This document shows positions 832 through 59,346 of a stretch of 64,000 bases of DNA, piece after piece. Position 1 is the stretch's first letter. Each line of letters opens with the position of its first letter. Under the pieces are notes generated by a model, which saw only the letters and a list, made by a program, of their open reading frames with translations, ran no database searches and was not told the origin of the DNA. Source of the DNA: Alphaproteobacteria bacterium (GTDB taxonomy: Bacteria > Pseudomonadota > Alphaproteobacteria > CALKHQ01); NCBI GenBank assembly GCA_965227515.1, contig CBDDFZ010000001.1:1952001-2016000 (forward strand). Direction: 5' to 3'. The position numbers were made by a program, and so were the translations under genes.

Positions 832-916
832 GTAGCCTGGGTGGAGCGCAGCGGAACCCGGGTTCGTCGCCACCTGCATTGTCAGTCCCCGGGTTTCACT
901 TCGTTTCACCCGGGCT
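832..916. repeat. GTAG-type REP doublet, interrupted at its right end by IS copy 1 (remainder at 2337-2344)
   Basis: GTAGCCTGGGTGGAGCGCAGCGGAACCCGGG...CCCGGGTTTCACTTCGTTTCACCCGGGCT|ACGGGCAT; similar doublets at 27276 and 56833. Confidence 0.85.
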
Positions 917-1180
917 TCTGTAACGGGCCATTGTTGGTCAATCCCTTTTTCGTCGTCCCGGCGCCTGGGTCATGCTTCTGTACGGGGTCGGCGCAGGGCC
1001 GCCGCCAAGATGGATATGCGAGGATCGGTCGGTCCAATCTACGGAAGCGTGCTCTCATGCGAGGCGACATCCCGGATGGCGGCCTGACCTGATCCATCGT
1101 CCCGGCGCGGGACGGCGCTCGACGGGCCGGTGTCGGTGCCCGTCGAAGCTCGTGTGTCGGTTCTCCTTATGCCGCGGCCA
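917..1180 (-). ncRNA. Putative bridge/seekRNA region of IS copy 1
   Basis: Non-coding 3' end of the IS with guide-like matches to target (1069-1078, 1039-1044) and donor junction (1008-1013, 975-982); exact RNA ends unknown. Confidence 0.75.
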
Positions 1181-2224
1181 TCATGCTGTCGCCATCGCCG
1201 GGCGCACCGGTCCGGCATGGTTGAACGGTGTGCCGTCAACCCACATCCGGTGCATGATCACGGCGAGCCGGCGCGCCAGCGCGACCTTCGCCTTCCTCAT
1301 GCCCGCACGCCTGGCCAGCTTCATCGCCCAGCTCTTCAGCCAGCCGCCCTCGATCGGCCGGGTCAGAACCACGTGTGCCGCCTCATAGAGGGCCGAGCGC
1401 ACATCGGCGTCCCCTACCTTCGATATCCGCCCCATCACCTCGCTCTCGCCCGACTGGCGCTTGGTCGGCGTCAGGCCGAAGTGCGCACCCACCAGGCGCG
1501 ACGAGGCAAACCGCCCGGGGTCGTCCACTCCCGACAAGTAGGTCAGTCCGACAATGCTCCCCACGCCCGGCACCGTCATCAGCAGGCGAGCGCGATCGTC
1601 GGCCTGCGCCGCCGCCCGGACCTGCCGGTCCAGCGCCGTGAACGATAGCAACAGGCCATCGCGTGCCGACAGCAGCGCCCCCGCCACCGCCTCCAGTACC
1701 GGATGCCCCGCCACAAGCTCCGAAATACGTGTCGAAAAGCTGCGCCTGGTGGTGTGCCCTACCTTCAGCCCGAAGTTCCGCAGCTGACCACGAAGGTGCA
1801 TCTCAAGATCGTGCAGCTTCGCGCGGAGCTGGTCGCGACCCTTCAAAAGGGCCCGCATCTCCTGGGCCGCCAAAGACTTGCAGTGAACCGGACGAAACCA
1901 GCCCACACGCATCAGCTGAGCAATCCCGCGTGCGTCCGAGCGGTCCGACTTCACCGGCATCGTCGAAAGCGCTCGCGCAACATGACGCGTCTCCAGCAAC
2001 TCAACCGAAAGACCGCCCTCGCTACATCCCCGCACAAGCCATTGCGACAACGGCCCCGCCTCAAGACCAATCCGCTCAACCGAAATCCCCAAAGACCCAA
2101 ACCACAACAACAAACCCGCCGGCGTGCTCGCAATACGAGCCTCGCAGACAATCCCGCCCGCGCCGTCAACAACGCACACCGATGACCATTCCAAAGAAAC
2201 GTCAATCCCGGCATAGTAGTTCAT
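1181..2224 (-). CDS. IS110-family DEDD transposase/recombinase (347 aa)
   Basis: MNYYAGIDVS (D), IGLEAG (E), KSDRSDA (DD); C-terminal GLTPTKRQSG with catalytic Ser; RBS GAGGAG before ATG. Confidence 0.95.
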   Translation of the reverse strand: MNYYAGIDVSLEWSSVCVVDGAGGIVCEARIASTPAGLLLWFGSLGISVERIGLEAGPLSQWLVRGCSEGGLSVELLETRHVARALSTMPVKSDRSDARGIAQLMRVGWFRPVHCKSLAAQEMRALLKGRDQLRAKLHDLEMHLRGQLRNFGLKVGHTTRRSFSTRISELVAGHPVLEAVAGALLSARDGLLLSFTALDRQVRAAAQADDRARLLMTVPGVGSIVGLTYLSGVDDPGRFASSRLVGAHFGLTPTKRQSGESEVMGRISKVGDADVRSALYEAAHVVLTRPIEGGWLKSWAMKLARRAGMRKAKVALARRLAVIMHRMWVDGTPFNHAGPVRPAMATA

Positions 2225-2858
2225 GGTCGTCTCTCCTCGATGTCTTGGAGCGGCAAACCCGACTCCGTGTATGACACCGACATCTTGAGGGACGACCACT
2301 CATGCACGCCACCAAACAAGGGCCGTTAGCCCATCTACGGGCATGAAGGTCCGCCATCTCGGCCAACTTGGCGACAGTGTTGAGGTTGCGGCCGGTGCCC
2401 GTGGCGGCGGCGGGAATGACGAGTTTCGATGGGCCCTGGCCGTCCGGGTAATGGACGTAGATTTCGCGTTCCCCAAGCGCGATCTCCTCGTTCTTGAAGC
2501 CCCTGGCGGTTTCCGCGGCGTCGTCGGGCGGCGGTTGGTCAAGAAACAGCACGATGACCCGGTTCGGCGCGGCGTCCCGGAACGGGTTGCCGGCGAGCAC
2601 CCGCGCCATTTCGGCGGACGTGCGCAGCACCACGCCCACCGGCTTGCCTGTGTGGGCTTCCAGCCGCGATTCCAGCGCTACTTTCACTTGGGCACGCGAC
2701 ACGTCGGCCGTGAACACGACGTTGCCGATGGCGATGTAGGTGCGGGCGCCGGTGAAGCCCGCATCCGCGCATATCTGGCGCAGGTCGACCATCGCGAGCT
2801 TGCCGGTGCCGCCGACGTTCACCGCGCGGAGGAGGGCGATGTAGGTTTGGGCGGTCAT
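2202..2858 (-). CDS. DUF1697 family protein (C-terminus altered by IS insertion)
   Basis: YIALLRAVNVGG, TYI.xGNVVF and TGRNLNTV.KL motifs. Confidence 0.85.
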   Translation of the reverse strand: MTAQTYIALLRAVNVGGTGKLAMVDLRQICADAGFTGARTYIAIGNVVFTADVSRAQVKVALESRLEAHTGKPVGVVLRTSAEMARVLAGNPFRDAAPNRVIVLFLDQPPPDDAAETARGFKNEEIALGEREIYVHYPDGQGPSKLVIPAAATGTGRNLNTVAKLAEMADLHARRWANGPCLVACMSGRPSRCRCHTRSRVCRSKTSRRDDHELLCRD

Positions 2859-2869
2859 CTCTTCACCGT

Positions 2870-2979
2870 CGTCATTGCGAGGAGCGCCAACTGGCGCGAC
2901 GCGGCAATCCAGAGCAACGCATCCGCATTCACGGCAATCGCCTGGATCGCCGCGCCGCTTTCAGCGGCTCGCGATGACG
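2870..2979. repeat. CGTCATTGCGAG-type palindromic intergenic repeat
   Basis: CGTCATTGCGAGGAGCG...GCGGCAATCCA...TGGATCGCCGCG...CTCGCGATGACG; related copies at 26197 and 62181. Confidence 0.8.
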
Positions 2980-2990
2980 CCAATGTGAGA

Positions 2991-4940
2991 CTACCCCGCG
3001 GTCAGGTACCCGCGCTCTTCAAGGTAGGCGACGATGCGTTCGGCCAATGCCTCGGCGTCGTCCTCGGCGGTGTTGACCGTGATCTCCGGGTTCTCCGGCG
3101 CTTCGTAGGGCGCGGAGATGCCGGTGAAGTTCTTGATCTCGCCGCGCTCGGCCTTGGCGTAGAGCCCCTTCACGTCGCGCGCCTTGCAGACCTCAAGCGG
3201 GGTGTCGACGAAGATCTCGATGAACTCGCCGTCCTCCACCAGCTCGCGCGCCATCCGGCGCTCGGCCCGGTAGGGCGAGATGAACGACACCAGCACGATG
3301 GTGCCTGAGTCCACGAACAGCTTCGCCACCTCGCCGATGCGGCGGATGTTCTCCACCCGGTCGGCTTCCGAGAACGACAGGTCCCGGTTCAGCCCGTGCC
3401 GCACGTTGTCGCCGTCCAGCAACTGGGTGTGGCGGCCACGCGCGTGCAGCGCCTTTTCGACCAGGTTGGCGACCGTCGATTTGCCGGACCCCGACAACCC
3501 GGTGAACCACAGCACCACCGGACGCTGGCCCTTCAGCCGGGCGCGCGCCCCCTTGTCGACGTCGAGCGCCTGCAGGTGGATGTTGGCCGCGCGCCTCAGC
3601 GCGAAGCGCACCATGCCGGCGCCGACGGTGGCGTTGGTGTAGCGGTCGATCAGGATGAACGACCCGGTGTCGCGCACCCGCTCATAGGCGTCGAACGCCA
3701 CCGGCTCGGCCAGCGCCAGGTCGCAGAGCGCGATCTCGTTCAGCTCCAGCGTCTTGCCGGCCAGCCGGTCGAACGAGTTGACGTCGGTCTTGTATTTGAT
3801 GTCGGTGATGTGGGCGGCGACCGTGCGGGTGCCGATGCGCATCATGTAGGAGCGCCCGGGGATCATCGGCTCGTCGTTCATCCACACGATCTCGGCCGCC
3901 ATCAGGTCGGCGACATCCGGCCGGTCGGTGTCGGCCGCCAGCATGTCGCCGCGTGCGATGTCCAGCTCGCGGTCCAGCGTCAGGGTCACCGCGTCGCCGG
4001 CGAACGCCTCGTCCAGGTCGCCGTCCATGGTGACGATGCGGTCAACTGCCGCCGGCTTGCCGTTGTCGGCCACCACGATGCCATCACCCGGCGCCACCCG
4101 GCCGCTGGCGATGGTGCCGCTGTAGCCGCGGAAATCCTGGTTCGGGCGGTTCACCCACTGCACCGGCATGCGGAACGGCAGATCGTCGGCGGTCTGGCCG
4201 ATCGGCACCGTCTCCAGGAAGCCCAGCAGGTGCGGGCCGTGATACCAGGGCATGCGCTCGCTGGAGCGGACCACGTTGTCGCCATAGCGCGCCGACATCG
4301 GGATCGCGACCACGGTCTGGAACGCCATGTTGCTGGCGAACGCGCCGAAGTCGGCAACGATGCGGTCGAACACCTGGCGGTCGAAGTCGACCAGGTCGAT
4401 CTTGTTCACTGCCAGCACCACGTTGCGGATGCCGAGCAGGTTGGCGATGTAGGCGTGGCGCCGGGTCTGGGTCAGCACGCCCTTGCGCGCGTCGACCAGG
4501 ATAACCGCCACCTCGGCGGTCGACGCCCCAGTCGCCATGTTGCGGGTGTACTGCTCGTGGCCCGGCGTGTCGGCGACGATGAACTTGCGCCGGTCGGTGG
4601 CGAAGAAGCGATAGGCGACGTCGATGGTGATGCCCTGCTGGCGCTCCGCCTCCAGGCCGTCGACCAGCAGCGCCAGGTCGATGTCGTCGCCGGTGGTGCC
4701 ATGCTTGCGGCTGTCGTTTTCCAGGGCCGCCAGATGGTCCTCGAACAGCACCCGGCTGTCATAGAGCAGGCGGCCGATCAGGGTCGACTTGCCGTCGTCG
4801 ACGCTGCCGCAGGTCAGGAACCGCAGCAGCTCCTTGTCTTCCTGCGCAGCCAAGTATTTGGCGACCGCCTCGGCGCTGTCCTTCTGCGCGTCGGGCGACA
4901 CGACGGTCAATGTGGGCGTGAGCTTGGGTGAGGTGCTCAA
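2991..4940 (-). CDS. cysNC: Bifunctional sulfate adenylyltransferase subunit 1 / APS kinase
   Basis: [21 protein letters not shown] GTPase motif; C-terminal [12 protein letters not shown] and [13 protein letters not shown] kinase motifs; TTG start overlaps the cysD stop. Confidence 0.95.
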
Positions 4941-54632: not shown

Positions 54633-54842
54633 ATGAGGGGGGATCGCCTCCACAAGAATGCGAAGGAATTCGAGCGTTGGTTGCGCAAGCAAGGGATCGA
54701 GATCGACCGAACCCGCGGAAAGGGTGGCCACGTGAAACTGACCAATCCGGCCAACGGCAAGGTCAGCACCATGACCAGCGGCAAACGCGATCTGCCCAAG
54801 GGGCTGGTCGAGGGCATCAAGAAGCAGCTTGGACTGAAGTGA
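54633..54842 (+). CDS. hicA: HicA family toxin (mRNA interferase)
   Basis: EFERWLRKQG...RGKGGH (catalytic His)...GIKKQLGLK; lies directly upstream of hicB; start uncertain. Confidence 0.85.
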   Translation: MRGDRLHKNAKEFERWLRKQGIEIDRTRGKGGHVKLTNPANGKVSTMTSGKRDLPKGLVEGIKKQLGLK

Positions 54843-54867
54843 CGGCGCATCTGGACAGGACCGGTTG

Positions 54868-55323
54868 ATGTACGCCTTTCCGATGACATTTACCGACGCA
54901 AGCCAATGGGACCCGGATGAGTCCGGTGTCGTCGTCGCTTGTGCCGATCTGCCAGAACTGCAAACGGCGGGCGACGACATGAGCGACGCGTTGTCGATGG
55001 CGCGCGATGCGCTCGCCCTGGTGCTGCAGATCTATGTCGAGGACAAGCGCCCGGTGCCGGCGCCATCCGCCCCGCGCAAGGGCGAAGTGGTGGTGGAGCC
55101 GGACCTCGTCACCGCGTTGCGGACGAAGCTCTATGAGGCGTTGCGCGACCGTGGGGTGACTCAGGTTGCGCTGGCCGAGCGGATGGGCACCAACCGGCGG
55201 ATGGTCGCGCGGTTGTTGGACTGGAAGCACAACGCCAACCCGGCGACGCTGGCCGATGCCCTGCGCGCCCTGGACTACAGACTCGATATCCGTGCCGTCG
55301 ATACGGCACCCCGGGCGGCCTAG
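54868..55323 (+). CDS. hicB: HicB family antitoxin with C-terminal XRE-type HTH
   Basis: Y.F...DLPELQTAGD...AL.MARDAL, P.PS, then TQVALAERMG HTH. Confidence 0.88.
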   Translation: MYAFPMTFTDASQWDPDESGVVVACADLPELQTAGDDMSDALSMARDALALVLQIYVEDKRPVPAPSAPRKGEVVVEPDLVTALRTKLYEALRDRGVTQVALAERMGTNRRMVARLLDWKHNANPATLADALRALDYRLDIRAVDTAPRAA

Positions 55324-55331
55324 CTGACCAG

Positions 55332-55392
55332 AAGACGTGGATGCCTCCTCGGAACAAGTCCGAGGACAGGCTCCACAAGTCCGCGCATGACG
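55332..55392. repeat. Degenerate CGTCATG-type REP half copy
   Basis: AAGACGTGGATGCC...ACAAGTCCGCGCATGACG resembles 34057-34082. Confidence 0.6.
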
Positions 55393-55522
55393 GAGTGAGG
55401 TAGAAAGCGTAGATGGGCTAACGGCCCTTGTTTGGTGGCGTGCATGAGTGGTCGTCCCTCAAGATGTCGGTGTCATACACGGAGTCGGGTTTGCCGCTCC
55501 AAGACATCGAGGAGAGACGACC

Positions 55523-56566
55523 ATGAACTACTATGCCGGGATTGACGTTTCTTTGGAATGGTCATCGGTGTGCGTTGTTGACGGCGCGGGCGGGATTGTC
55601 TGCGAGGCTCGTATTGCGAGCACGCCGGCGGGTTTGTTGTTGTGGTTTGGGTCTTTGGGGATTTCGGTTGAGCGGATTGGTCTTGAGGCGGGGCCGTTGT
55701 CGCAATGGCTTGTGCGGGGATGTAGCGAGGGCGGTCTTTCGGTTGAGTTGCTGGAGACGCGTCATGTTGCGCGAGCGCTTTCGACGATGCCGGTGAAGTC
55801 GGACCGCTCGGACGCACGCGGGATTGCTCAGCTGATGCGTGTGGGCTGGTTTCGTCCGGTTCACTGCAAGTCTTTGGCGGCCCAGGAGATGCGGGCCCTT
55901 TTGAAGGGTCGCGACCAGCTCCGCGCGAAGCTGCACGATCTTGAGATGCACCTTCGTGGTCAGCTGCGGAACTTCGGGCTGAAGGTAGGGCACACCACCA
56001 GGCGCAGCTTTTCGACACGTATTTCGGAGCTTGTGGCGGGGCATCCGGTACTGGAGGCGGTGGCGGGGGCGCTGCTGTCGGCACGCGATGGCCTGTTGCT
56101 ATCGTTCACGGCGCTGGACCGGCAGGTCCGGGCGGCGGCGCAGGCCGACGATCGCGCTCGCCTGCTGATGACGGTGCCGGGCGTGGGGAGCATTGTCGGA
56201 CTGACCTACTTGTCGGGAGTGGACGACCCCGGGCGGTTTGCCTCGTCGCGCCTGGTGGGTGCGCACTTCGGCCTGACGCCGACCAAGCGCCAGTCGGGCG
56301 AGAGCGAGGTGATGGGGCGGATATCGAAGGTAGGGGACGCCGATGTGCGCTCGGCCCTCTATGAGGCGGCACACGTGGTTCTGACCCGGCCGATCGAGGG
56401 CGGCTGGCTGAAGAGCTGGGCGATGAAGCTGGCCAGGCGTGCGGGCATGAGGAAGGCGAAGGTCGCGCTGGCGCGCCGGCTCGCCGTGATCATGCACCGG
56501 ATGTGGGTTGACGGCACACCGTTCAACCATGCCGGACCGGTGCGCCCGGCGATGGCGACAGCATGA
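55523..56566 (+). CDS. IS110-family DEDD transposase/recombinase (347 aa)
   Basis: Identical translation to copy 1; DEDD and SG motifs. Confidence 0.95.
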   Translation: MNYYAGIDVSLEWSSVCVVDGAGGIVCEARIASTPAGLLLWFGSLGISVERIGLEAGPLSQWLVRGCSEGGLSVELLETRHVARALSTMPVKSDRSDARGIAQLMRVGWFRPVHCKSLAAQEMRALLKGRDQLRAKLHDLEMHLRGQLRNFGLKVGHTTRRSFSTRISELVAGHPVLEAVAGALLSARDGLLLSFTALDRQVRAAAQADDRARLLMTVPGVGSIVGLTYLSGVDDPGRFASSRLVGAHFGLTPTKRQSGESEVMGRISKVGDADVRSALYEAAHVVLTRPIEGGWLKSWAMKLARRAGMRKAKVALARRLAVIMHRMWVDGTPFNHAGPVRPAMATA

Positions 56567-56830
56567 TGGCCGCGGCATAAGGAGAACCGACACACGAGCT
56601 TCGACGGGCACCGACACCGGCCCGTCGAGCGCCGTCCCGCGCCGGGACGATGGATCAGGTCAGGCCGCCATCCGGGATGTCGCCTCGCATGAGAGCACGC
56701 TTCCGTAGATTGGACCGACCGATCCTCGCATATCCATCTTGGCGGCGGCCCTGCGCCGACCCCGTACAGAAGCATGACCCAGGCGCCGGGACGACGAAAA
56801 AGGGATTGACCAACAATGGCCCGTTACAGA
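56567..56830 (+). ncRNA. Putative bridge/seekRNA region of IS copy 2
   Basis: Hairpin 56601-56628; guide-like segments at 56669-56678, 56703-56708, 56734-56739 and 56765-56772 inside predicted internal loops. Confidence 0.78.
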
Positions 56831-56832
56831 AG

Positions 56833-56917
56833 CCCGGGTGGAGCGGAGCGCAACCCGGGGCCTTCATTGCCGTGATAAGATTTGTCCCCGGGTTTCACTG
56901 CGTTTCACCCGGGCTAC
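56833..56917. repeat. GTAG-type REP doublet interrupted at its left end by IS copy 2
   Basis: (GTAG)CCCGGGTGGAGCGGAGCGCAACCCGGGG...CCCCGGGTTTCACTGCGTTTCACCCGGGCTAC. Confidence 0.88.
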
Positions 56918-56994
56918 GGTTCCACGCACTTCAATTGTCAGCCTCGACATTGCCCAATGGGCGCGCGTCGAGCGTGACAGCCATTGAGGGAATG

Positions 56995-57040
56995 GAAAGG
57001 AAAGAAGGCGGCGGGCCGGTTGCGGAGCAGCCCGCCGCCT
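56995..57040 (-). terminator. Rho-independent terminator of metE
   Basis: Minus strand AGGCGGCGGGC-loop-GCCCGCCGCCT followed by TCTTTTCCTTT. Confidence 0.7.
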
Positions 57041-57051
57041 ACCGCCGGGCA

Positions 57052-59346
57052 TCACTCCGCGGCGGCTTGGGGGCGCGCCAACTGAGAGCGGAGGTCGCGC
57101 GCGGCGGTAACCATGTTGGCGAGGGCAGACTCGACCTCCGGCCAGTCACGGGTCTTCAGCCCGCAGTCCGGATTGACCCACACCTGCTCCGGCGCCAGCA
57201 CCTTCAGCGCCTTTTCCAGCAGGTCGCGCATCACCGATGTGTCCGGCACCCGCGGCGAGTGGATGTCATAGACGCCGGGGCCGATCTCCGCCGGGTAGCG
57301 ATAGGCGGTGAACGCGTCCAAGAGCTCCATGTCGGAGCGCGATGTCTCTACCGAGATCACGTCGGCGTCCAAAGCGCCGATGGACTCGATGATGTCGTTG
57401 AACTCCGAGTAGCACATGTGGGTGTGGATCTGGGTGTCGTCGCGCACGCCGCTGGCCGACAGCCGGAACGCCTCGACCGCCCACTTGAGATAGGCCGGCC
57501 AGTCGGCCTGGCGCAGGGGCAGGCCCTCGCGCAGGGCGGGCTCATCGATCTGCACCGCGCGGATGCCGGCGGTCTCCAGGTCGACCACCTCGTCGCGGAT
57601 GGCGAGCGCGATCTGCTTGGTGGTTTCCGAGCGCGGCTGGTCGTCACGCACGAACGACCACTGCAGGATGGTCACCGGGCCGGTGAGCATGCCCTTCATC
57701 GGCTTGTCGGTCTGCGACTGGGCGTAGCGCGACCATTCCACCGTCATCGGGTTCGGGCGCGACACGTCGCCGAAGATGATCGGCGGCTTCACGCAGCGCG
57801 AGCCGTAGGACTGGACCCAGCCATTGGCGGTGAAGGCGAAACCGTCGAGCTGCTCGCCGAAATACTCCACCATGTCGTTGCGCTCGAACTCGCCGTGCAC
57901 CAGCACGTCGAGGCCGATCGCCTCCTGGCGGCGGATGCAGTCGTCGGTCTTCTCCTGCAGGAACTTGGTGTAGGCCGCGTCGTCCAGGTCGCCGCGGCGG
58001 TTGGCAGCGCGGGCCTGGCGCACGTCCTTGGTCTGCGGGAACGAGCCGATGGTGGTGGTGGGCAGCGGCGGCAGGTCGAGCGCCGCGCGCTGCGCCTCCC
58101 GGCGCGCCGGATAGGGGCTCTGCCGGGTCAGCCAGGCGTCGTTCACGCTGGCGGACCGCGCCTTCACCTCGTCGTTGTGGATCCGCTTCGAGGTCTTGCG
58201 GCTGGCCACGGCGGCATCGCTGTCGACGAAGGAGTCGGCGGTGGAGGGCAGGGTGCCGTTGGCCGCCTGCGCGATGGCCACGACTTCGTCCACCTTCTGC
58301 ACCGCGAAGGCGAGCCAGCTCTTCAACTCGTCGTCCAGCTTGGTCTCGCGGTTCAGGTCGACCGGACTGTGCAGCAGGGAGCACGAGGAGGCGACGATCA
58401 CCCGCTCGTCGCCGAGCTTCGCGGCGGTATCGCGCACGGTCTGCAGGGCGGCCGTCAGGTCGGTGCGCCAGATGTTGCGGCCGTCAACGAGGCCCAGCGA
58501 GGCGACCTTGTCGCTGCCGAGGGCATCGAGACCGGCGGCCAGCTCCTCGCCGCCACGGGTCAGGTCGAAGTGCAGGCCGGCCACCGGCAGGCCCGCGGCG
58601 CGCTTCAGGTTCGGGCCGTACGGGCCGAAATAGCTGGTCAGCAGGATCTTCAGGTCGGGCGCTGCCGCGGCCAGCGACCCGTAGGCGGTCTCCAGCGCGT
58701 CGAGCTGCGCATCATCGAGGTCGAGTGCCAGCACGGGCTCGTCGATCTGCACCCACCCCACGCCGGCGCCGGAGAGCTCGGACAGCACCTGCGCGTAGAC
58801 AGCAACCAGGTCGTCAATGCGTTGCAGCGGGTCGAACCCCTCCTCCTTCGACTTGGCGAGCACCAGGAACGAGAGCGGACCCACCAGCACGGGCCGGGTC
58901 TCGACGCCCAGCGCCTTCGCCTCGTTCCAGGCGTCGAGCGGGCGGTTGGCGGTCAGCCGGAAGCTGGTGTCGGCAGTCAGCTCGGGCACCATGTAGTGGT
59001 AGTTGGTGTCCAGCCACTTGGTCATTTCCAGCGCCGGTGCGGCGTCGCTGCCGCGTGCCATCGCGAAATAGGTGTCGAGCGCCGTCGCCTCGTCCCCGAA
59101 GCGCGGCGGGATCGCACCCACCATCACGGCGGTGTCCAGCACGTGGTCGTAGAACGAGAAATCGTTGCTGGCGATGTGGTCGACGCCGGCATCGGCCTGG
59201 CGCCGCCAGTTGGCGGCGCGCAGCTCGCGCGCGGTCGCCTCGAGCGCGTCGGCGGCGATCTCGCCGCGCCAGAACTGCTCCAGCGCCTTCTTTAGTTCGC
59301 GGCGCGCGCCGATGCGCGGAAAGCCGAGGATGGCAGATTGCACCAT
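57052..59346 (-). CDS. metE: Cobalamin-independent methionine synthase
   Basis: LGFPRIG..RELK, KWLDTNYHY, HGEFERNDMVEYF, HTHMCYSEF and WVNPDCGLKTR. Confidence 0.97.
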   Translation of the reverse strand: MVQSAILGFPRIGARRELKKALEQFWRGEIAADALEATARELRAANWRRQADAGVDHIASNDFSFYDHVLDTAVMVGAIPPRFGDEATALDTYFAMARGSDAAPALEMTKWLDTNYHYMVPELTADTSFRLTANRPLDAWNEAKALGVETRPVLVGPLSFLVLAKSKEEGFDPLQRIDDLVAVYAQVLSELSGAGVGWVQIDEPVLALDLDDAQLDALETAYGSLAAAAPDLKILLTSYFGPYGPNLKRAAGLPVAGLHFDLTRGGEELAAGLDALGSDKVASLGLVDGRNIWRTDLTAALQTVRDTAAKLGDERVIVASSCSLLHSPVDLNRETKLDDELKSWLAFAVQKVDEVVAIAQAANGTLPSTADSFVDSDAAVASRKTSKRIHNDEVKARSASVNDAWLTRQSPYPARREAQRAALDLPPLPTTTIGSFPQTKDVRQARAANRRGDLDDAAYTKFLQEKTDDCIRRQEAIGLDVLVHGEFERNDMVEYFGEQLDGFAFTANGWVQSYGSRCVKPPIIFGDVSRPNPMTVEWSRYAQSQTDKPMKGMLTGPVTILQWSFVRDDQPRSETTKQIALAIRDEVVDLETAGIRAVQIDEPALREGLPLRQADWPAYLKWAVEAFRLSASGVRDDTQIHTHMCYSEFNDIIESIGALDADVISVETSRSDMELLDAFTAYRYPAEIGPGVYDIHSPRVPDTSVMRDLLEKALKVLAPEQVWVNPDCGLKTRDWPEVESALANMVTAARDLRSQLARPQAAAE

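Follow-up and report, generated by a model that had tools for sequence, protein, structure and literature searches.

The closest described counterparts of the locus reported here are RNA-guided recombinases of the IS110 family of insertion sequences (ISs). IS621 has a bispecific RNA with four guides, two per strand sense and with the core included, and a target resembling repetitive extragenic palindromes (REP-like) (PMC11208160, PMC11208158); once strands have been exchanged, the bases 3' of its right-target and right-donor guides form pairs with the partner DNA, the so-called handshake (PMC11208160, PMC11208158). For the IS1111 group, right-end bridge RNAs were predicted for 93% of the catalogued members, with donor bases in a multiloop for many orthologues (Durrant 2024, PMC11208160), and a guide RNA (seekRNA) was shown experimentally for four members, ISEc11, ISPa11, ISKpn4, and ISPst6 (Siddiquee 2024, PMC11187229). 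We analyzed a 64,000-nucleotide (nt) stretch of an alphaproteobacterial genome (the window; contig CBDDFZ010000001.1, positions 1,952,001 to 2,016,000), which carries an IS1111-group element of 1.42 kb at 55411-56832 (+). Comparison of this element with its copies and relatives indicates that its non-coding 3' end (56567-56832) very probably functions as a bridge/seek RNA. A sequence-only reading of the window had proposed a bispecific guide in this region, and the proposal is supported here by covariation of guides with targets, of guides with donor ends and of stem partners, as well as by the IS110-family protein. The anatomy of the element, these three kinds of covariation and the protein family are direct observations.

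By its domains, the product of the recombinase gene (55523-56566, +; 347 amino acids, aa) is an IS110-family DEDD/Ser recombinase, with a DEDD RuvC-like domain and a Tnp domain. It matches PF01548 (DEDD_Tnp_IS110; 9.5e-13, 48.6 bits, cutoff 29), PF02371 (Transposase_20; 2.3e-20, 73.2 bits, cutoff 21.3), and the NCBIfam equivalog NF033542, "IS110 family RNA-guided transposase" (237.4 bits against a cutoff of 140). Among solved structures it matches only the IS621 and ISCro4 transposases, over ~128 C-terminal residues (E 7e-11 and 1e-11), and its GIDVS, LEAG, KSDRSDAR, and RQSG stand opposite the matching motifs of these chains. D8, E55, D94, D97, and S258 are thereby placed opposite the catalytic motifs; the N-terminal alignment behind this placement is weak (4.5 bits) and the motifs were matched by eye. 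The catalytic residues of IS621 are D11, E60, D102, D105, and S241 (PMC11208158, PMC11208160), and the DEDD and Ser motifs are kept here. IS110-family matches on enterobacterial plasmids are 26-28% identical to the recombinase.

The element has the features given for seekRNA-bearing IS1111 members (PMC11187229), namely a long non-coding region downstream of the gene (266 nt, against 110 nt upstream), a protein of 330-350 aa with the motif GL-P----SG (here GLTPTKRQSG), and subterminal inverted repeats, described there as 7-17 bp long with short terminal extensions. In the window these repeats lie at 55419-55436 and 56809-56826 (18 nt, 78% complementary), beginning 6 nt from the left end and stopping 4 nt before the right end of the IS body. 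Imperfect inverted repeats are frequent in this GC-rich IS, and it is the position and conservation of the pair that carry weight; the end motif TAA(C/T)(C)GG../..CC(G)(A/T)TTA is retained among relatives. As in the seekRNA elements, the bottom-strand complement is preceded on its 5' side by a top-strand complement; like ISPa11, the element has a REP-like target, and natural retargeting through changed guide bases, reported for ISEc11 and ISXne4, is seen here too (PMC11187229). The element differs from the four experimentally studied members in sequence and target, and is known from its sequence alone. Whereas the text of Siddiquee (PMC11187229) considered here speaks of target matches and of altering the donor flank, in this element donor matches and handshake-like positions are supported as well.

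With IS621 (PMC11208160, PMC11208158) the element shares a four-guide bispecific RNA with two guides per strand sense and the core included, a REP-like target, and handshake-like bases 3' of the right guides. Read on the opposite strand, where the AG core becomes CT as the sequence-only reading had noted, the guides fall in the IS621 order (left target, right target, left donor, right donor) and with similar lengths (left target 8 nt here and 7 in IS621; right target 3-4 nt here and 4 in IS621). We infer this mapping onto the IS621 layout, with its 7-bp left donor and native 4-bp right-target pairing, from sequence. In contrast to IS621, whose RNA precedes the gene in the left end, the RNA here follows the gene and belongs to the right end, the donor guides sit in a three-way junction rather than an internal loop, the subterminal repeats are long, and the complementary guides pair with the core just partly. 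ISPpu9 (PMC12288879), likewise an IS110-family element that sits in REP sequences, has a gene for the small RNA Ssr9 downstream of its transposase gene; extra stand-alone copies of the RNA gene are reported for it, whereas all 21 genome matches to the non-coding region studied here fall within IS copies or a deletion derivative. The recombinase, which had been called distinct, is thus another member of its family and not another kind, the bridge/seek architecture having been published in 2024; the IS may already be among the bridge RNAs predicted by Durrant 2024 or the ISfinder entries.

Four segments of the non-coding end, found at exactly the positions first proposed for them, match the target and the IS ends: CATCCGGGAT (56669-56678), CCGTAG (56703-56708), CCATCT (56734-56739), and TACAGAAG (56765-56772). 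In the first, the right-target guide, 56669-56676 pair with 56840-56833 and 56677-56678 face the core; the second is the left-target guide, which with the following AU spans 56703-56710 (+), the AU matching the initial dinucleotide of the IS left end, as seen from the sequences of insertion sites and relatives. In 20,000 mononucleotide shuffles of the IS non-coding region, CCGTAG occurred with a frequency of 7.3%, CCATCT of 3.0%, and TACAGAAG of 0.16%, and the product of the frequencies of the four segments is ~1e-6. A second copy of the IS with both cores lies at 915-2336 (-); its guide-RNA region is at ~917-1180, in agreement with the sequence-only reading, and the two copies are 100% identical between the borders ..CGT-AG and AG-CCCGGGTG.. 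and unrelated beyond. The left core (AG, or CT on the opposite strand) is at 55411-55412 (+), where identity between copies begins, and the IS body with the right core occupies 55413-56832 (+; 1420 bp), as delimited by the genome copies and by contig breaks of public sequencing runs.

The host genome (5.5 Mb in two contigs) holds 20 full copies of the IS with 89-100% identity and one derivative with an internal deletion. All insertions are site-specific, lack terminal inverted repeats and have a short core at both junctions, as is usual for the IS110 family: 21/21 have GT-AG on the left and AG-CC(C/T)GG(G/A)TG (AG-CCYGGRTG) on the right, in one arm of a REP-like hairpin. The outer flanks of the copies differ, and these are therefore separate insertions. 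The empty target, reconstructed from the window as the 13-mer CGTAGCCYGGRTG, is real, occurring 81 times in the genome against 0 times for a reversed control. In the window, the REP-like hairpin bearing the target extends over 56833-56919, with the occupied arm starting at 56833 and an unoccupied target on the minus strand of the other arm (56906-56919; 13-mer at 56906-56918). REP-like paired palindromes form a genome-wide family, to which 831-914 and 56833-56919 of the window belong. In total, 181 unoccupied arms with AG-CCYGGRTG were found, of which 114 have GT ahead of the core; the 134 GT-AG-CCYGGRTG sites (114 empty, 20 occupied) include 89 with CCC. An RNA guide of the kind proposed would account for the occurrence of the IS solely in one arm of these hairpins.

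Natural variation of the right-target guide among the 20 full copies is informative. In the non-coding-end alignment, 13 copies (L001-L013) carry CATCCGGGAT and seven diverged copies (L014-L020) carry CATCCAGGAT, so that the guide reads CATCCGGG in the former and CATCCAGG in the latter; the difference, G or A, is at 56674, which would pair with the third base to the right of the core. At this target position, the 13 insertions of the G group have C (11) or T (2), and those of the A group have T throughout (7/7; Fisher p = 0.0005). The A group sits in CCT.. (CCTGG..) sites in every case (7/7, p = 4.8e-4) and never uses CCC.. sites. Nine of the 13 G-group insertions are in the perfectly complementary CCCGGATG, a variant making up 27 of the 134 sites (20%; binomial p = 1.8e-4). 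Among departures from complementarity, G facing T and U facing G are tolerated, and A opposite C was never seen. Such a pattern is predicted if an RNA pairs with the top strand; a DNA-reading protein would not obviously produce such a wobble-like asymmetry. On the other side of the core, GT precedes it in 21/21 insertions, compared with 114/181 unoccupied AG-CCYGGRTG sites (0.63^21, ~6e-5); C at -3 is not clearly enriched (16/21 insertions, 106/181 unoccupied sites) and -4 is free. Of the six-base left-target segment of the sequence-only reading, insertion sites effectively constrain only about (C)GT and the core.

Relatives of the IS carry the comparison to other targets. A scan of one genome per species gave 29 loci with relatives at 43-68% protein identity, and plasmid records added more; nucleotide identity to relatives on Methylocystis and Acidiphilium plasmids is ~68%. 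The nearest relatives (L023-L056), from alphaproteobacterial genomes and plasmids, are annotated just as "IS110 family transposase"; none is identical to the window's element, with which they share the architecture of the RNA, the AG core and the end motifs, each having its own target. Their ends were located via the conserved end motifs, and a fixed 30-nt window after the conserved GGACG was compared with the reverse complement of the core plus eight flank bases. The permutation set contained 17 elements in 16 guide/target classes, L031 being dropped as a near-duplicate of L030; L049 (truncated), L039 (extra module), and L046 (broken gene, no recognizable RNA) were excluded from permutation tests and structure alignment alike, and the right-target test omitted L028, L029, L033, L034, L037, L038, L040, L042-L045, L047, L048, L050, and L051 as duplicates of a class present, truncated, or lacking ends. 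The cognate right-target matches summed to 129/160, compared with a permuted mean of 92.2 and maximum of 116, and 0/100,000 permutations reached 129, figures whose independence is overstated by shared ancestry (~12 independent clades by our grouping). The cognate flank was best or tied best in 11/16 rows. Matches of 10/10 were found for the L030 group and L035, and of 9/10 for L024, L023, and L054; targets as diverse as GGCGGATT, CCTGATCT, CGGACATG, AAGGTTTG, ATCGCATA, and CGGAAGTT each go with a matching guide. In the L030 clade the left-target guide is altered together with the left flank (7/8 in L030 and L040, 8/8 in L032, 6/8 in L031), the segment being CACTTAG in L030 and L040 and CCCGATAG in L032, with one mismatch in L031. 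In L036 the left-target and left-end guides were not confidently placed and were counted as a miss where scored. Across the 16 classes, the right-target guide changes with the flank.

The structure was examined with RNAalifold on 12 sequences, which gave a closing stem, a target-loop outer stem and a donor hairpin, with the guides in the unpaired stretches between them and the donor guides in a three-way junction. Both-sided (compensatory) changes occur in 17/28 consensus pairs. The closing stem (56634-56646 with 56779-56792, +; helix 1) has 12 pairs, 7 of them with both-sided changes, and 90% of cells paired; the alignment fold supports the stem proposed earlier, slightly shifted from 56633-56643/56782-56793. 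The outer stem of the target loop (56652-56666 with 56712-56725, +; helix 2) has 9 pairs, 6 with both-sided changes, and appears both in the alignment fold and in the minimum free energy (MFE) structure. The donor-side hairpin (56742-56763, +; helices 3 and 4; 7 pairs, 4 with both-sided changes) is the one expected between the donor segments, and it is covariation-supported. Over the whole fold, 89.7% of cells are paired, against 39.6-45.2% with partners slid by 1-3 columns (cell counts are inflated, since 4 of the 12 sequences are close kin), and the covariation score was reached in 0/500 shuffles. G:U cells outnumber A:C cells 32 to 11, favoring the plus strand as the RNA, with a bias in that the fold was predicted on this strand. 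Folding of the window sequence alone reproduces the outer stem, the closing stem and two further hairpins that had been drawn by hand: the 5' hairpin ahead of the RNA core (56601-56628, +; a perfect 9-bp stem, in whose place relatives have a hairpin of other sequence) and the inner hairpin of the target loop (56682-56696, +; of variable length in relatives). The loop of this inner hairpin is where the diverged copies have C in place of T.

Of the two donor guides, the one at 56765-56774 (+) consists of TACAGAAG, which is of the same sense as the right end and core of the IS, and a trailing CA, of which the C is also the base that opens the right target; the other (56734-56739, +) is complementary to the core and the IS left end. 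In 17/17 elements the 7-mer in the RNA is identical to the DNA of right end and core, and it occurs in three forms (ACAGAAG, AGAGAAG, and AGCGAAG). Just ahead of the donor hairpin, elements with a left end of ATGG(G) carry CC(C)CAT, and L041 and L055, with ATGCC, carry GGCAT. These represent two right-end substitution events and one left-end double change; with so few independent donor events we hold the bispecific reading less firmly than the target reading, and the use of the donor matches is the least settled point. Further evidence comes from bases adjoining the guides. The two bases after the right-end guide match the first two right-target bases at 22/32 positions (permutation p = 9e-5), the first being equal in 13/16 classes (p = 0.007) and both in 8/16 (p = 0.0003). 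After the left-target guide, AU is present in 16/17 elements (AG-AT), whose left ends begin with AT; L039, with a left end starting CT, has CU (AG-CT) in each of its two target loops. At the corresponding position 3' of the complementary right-target guide (after 56678), inspection by eye gave no consistent handshake pattern.

The production of the RNA, its binding by the protein and the chemistry we infer as follows. A -35-like hexamer, TTGACC (56806-56811, +), is seen in the sequence 17 nt before the last four IS bases, and TTGAC is found at the same distance in the window's element and in L026, L024, L025, L041, the L030 group, and L039. A promoter would form only in the excised circle, from TTGACC, the last four bases and 55413-55414, and the RNA would be made as the tail of the recombinase-gene transcript, probably from this junction promoter, and then trimmed; in ISEc11, likewise, the junction promoter was the only one seen (PMC11187229). 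The predicted RNA core is ~160 nt (~56634-56792, +) and of the same sense as the recombinase gene, with a long closing stem that would enclose a target-binding internal loop and a donor-binding three-way junction. Being of the same sense as left target and core, 56703-56708 would pair with the bottom strand, with effectively (C)GT and AG being read; 56734-56739 would pair with the core and the left end, both IS ends being joined in the excised circle. The RNA-bound DEDD/Ser recombinase may bring the circle junction and the REP-like target together, with strand exchange at the AG (CT) core. The AU (IS left end) and C(A) (right target) match the partner DNA, as handshake pairing following the first exchange of strands would lead one to expect.

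Several observations weigh against this reading. The right-target match of the window element is 8/10, a level reached somewhere in 28% of the shuffles and weak when taken alone, and one of its mismatches faces the core. The guides of L025 and L032 fit their own right flank at just 6/10 positions, that of L053 at 7/10 ungapped (better with a one-base bulge), and that of L055 fits the flank of L041 (9) better than its own (7). The left-target guide is constrained at only 3-4 bases plus the core, and its signal across genomes is weak (cognate mean 5.5/8 against 4.4/8). On the donor side, the left-end match is short (5-7 of 8), L025, L035, and L054 each have one left-end change without a compensating change in the RNA, and no handshake-like match is found in 3/16 classes. 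The energy of single-sequence folding is ordinary (z of -1.58 and -1.79, with 12 and 11 of 200 shuffles folding as well), too weak to count; the structural support comes from covariation. A promoter scan of 55300-57000 found 0 promoter-like sites in the linear IS, and the promoter envisaged at the circle junction has a poor -10 element (3/6 by eye).

One alternative is a target-only seekRNA, in which the RNA picks the target, the protein recognizes the IS ends via the subterminal repeats, and the donor matches are kept for other reasons, such as descent. A short 82-nt RNA, described as containing the two target matches, is reported to have sufficed for movement of a mini-IS (PMC11187229), and donor ends vary little, with few independent changes and the uncompensated ones of L025, L035, and L054. 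We nevertheless consider this alternative unlikely: the right-end 7-mer stays equal in 17/17 elements through three variants, the double change from ATGCC to GGCAT is compensatory, the fold supported by covariation leaves both donor segments unpaired, and the bases beside the donor guide track the target, which is sensible only if that part of the RNA joins strand exchange. Less likely still, and in our view highly improbable, is a DNA-level feature without functional RNA, the matches being either sites bound by protein or remnants of the target and the ends copied into the non-coding region. The lack of a promoter-like site inside the element and the weak folding z-scores would fit such a feature; the maintenance of stem pairing through 17 both-sided changes, the excess of G:U (32) over A:C (11) and the fact that the target variants tolerated are exactly the wobble-compatible ones would not, and family relatives co-purify with RNAs of this kind (PMC11187229). 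Chance resemblance in GC-rich DNA beside a repeated palindromic target, to which the frequent 8/10 matches in shuffles and the many imperfect inverted repeats of the IS might point, is scarcely credible given the product of the four segment frequencies (~1e-6), the absence of any cross-genome permutation among 100,000 that reached the cognate score, the sorting of 20 insertions by a single-base guide variant, and the way in which donor guides and the bases beside them track the IS ends and the target.

On the preferred reading, that of a bridge/seek RNA, the locus brings to the RNA-guided recombinases a well-documented IS1111-group orthologue represented by 20 natural insertions and by guides of two variants. 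These would offer an in vivo view of mismatch and wobble tolerance, G opposite T being accepted and A opposite C never seen, and of how unevenly the target is read, 8 bases counting on one flank and 3-4 bases and the core on the opposite one. We are evenly divided on whether the genome amounts to a natural specificity experiment, in which two co-resident sub-lineages, one guide base apart, divide ~134 REP-like sites by wobble pairing, the strand-exchange mechanism of IS621 (handshake covariation, guide order) is unchanged in the IS1111 group despite an RNA at the other end, and L039 hints at modular retargeting. The relatives form a small series of naturally reprogrammed guides, which could inform the choice of orthologues for engineering and, since no Rfam model matches the RNA, could seed a covariance model: an Rfam scan of 55300-57000 with E up to 10 placed no family on 56567-56832. 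Sub-threshold miRNA-like matches at 56830-56916 and a psaA fragment in the same scan were rejected as artefacts of the REP-like hairpin.

Some relatives deserve separate mention. In L023, the closest (68% protein identity), ~1 kb of foreign DNA (L023:3766-4833) lies in the non-coding end before the -35-like box, and the true right end and a matching target (9/10) are found beyond it. The RNA of L053, on a Methylocystis plasmid, matches, to the left and to the right, the site in which L025 resides; the guide of L025 may have drifted after insertion, or this element may have been mobilized by the RNA of another copy. L039, on a contig of a Hyphomicrobium sp. metagenome-assembled genome (IS at ~2423-4081), has a non-coding end (L039:3545-4081) with a complete bridge-like RNA, whose first right-target guide matches its own flank at 8/10 positions and that of a related IS, in L046, at 9/10. 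The same end contains a second, free-standing target-loop-like module (~3760-3850), with a guide at 3779 that is 10/10 complementary to the element's own flank; it folds as a stem with an internal loop, with ordinary energy (z +0.64). L039 may be a modular or dual-target element.

At the other end of the IS, the 5' leader can form a stem-loop (55448-55524, +) that pairs the ribosome-binding site and AUG (MFE -39.9 kcal/mol, z -4.23, equaled in 1/200 shuffles), the arms of which are retained in relatives by eye. In this model, translation of read-through transcripts would be blocked, comparable to the fold-back inhibition that operates in other IS elements. Three terminator-like sites in a scan of 55300-57000 lie on the subterminal repeats and were not accepted as terminators.

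The IS is not confined to this genome. Contigs from four public runs stop at 55408/55434 and 56833/56834, which agrees with the proposed ends of a multi-copy IS; one of these runs, X1, is possibly the source sample of the window, hence not independent. In X3, a single contig of 1,438 bases covers exactly 55409-56834 with 40 differences, one of them the loop change at 56690 that marks the diverged copies of the present genome; its depth is ~9x that of its flank contigs. Comparison of runs X2-X4 with 55100-57150 of the window indicates that close variants of the IS are present in other organisms. The contigs of the four runs contained no empty-site form joining across the IS and no circle junction, and the IS non-coding region was unmatched in three other genomes of the same taxonomic family. 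The deletion derivative (G000:C1:998356-999181; L021/L022) consists of IS bases 1-710 fused to 1300-1421; it has lost the 3' half of the gene and the target loop, retains the two IS ends as well as the donor portion of its RNA, and occupies a CCTGGGTG site. Directly upstream of the IS in the window is a hicA/hicB-like toxin-antitoxin pair (54633-55323, +), with matches to HicA_toxin (E 9.8e-11) and HicB_lk_antitox (E 2e-5, just under the Pfam cutoff) and a weak match to HTH_3.

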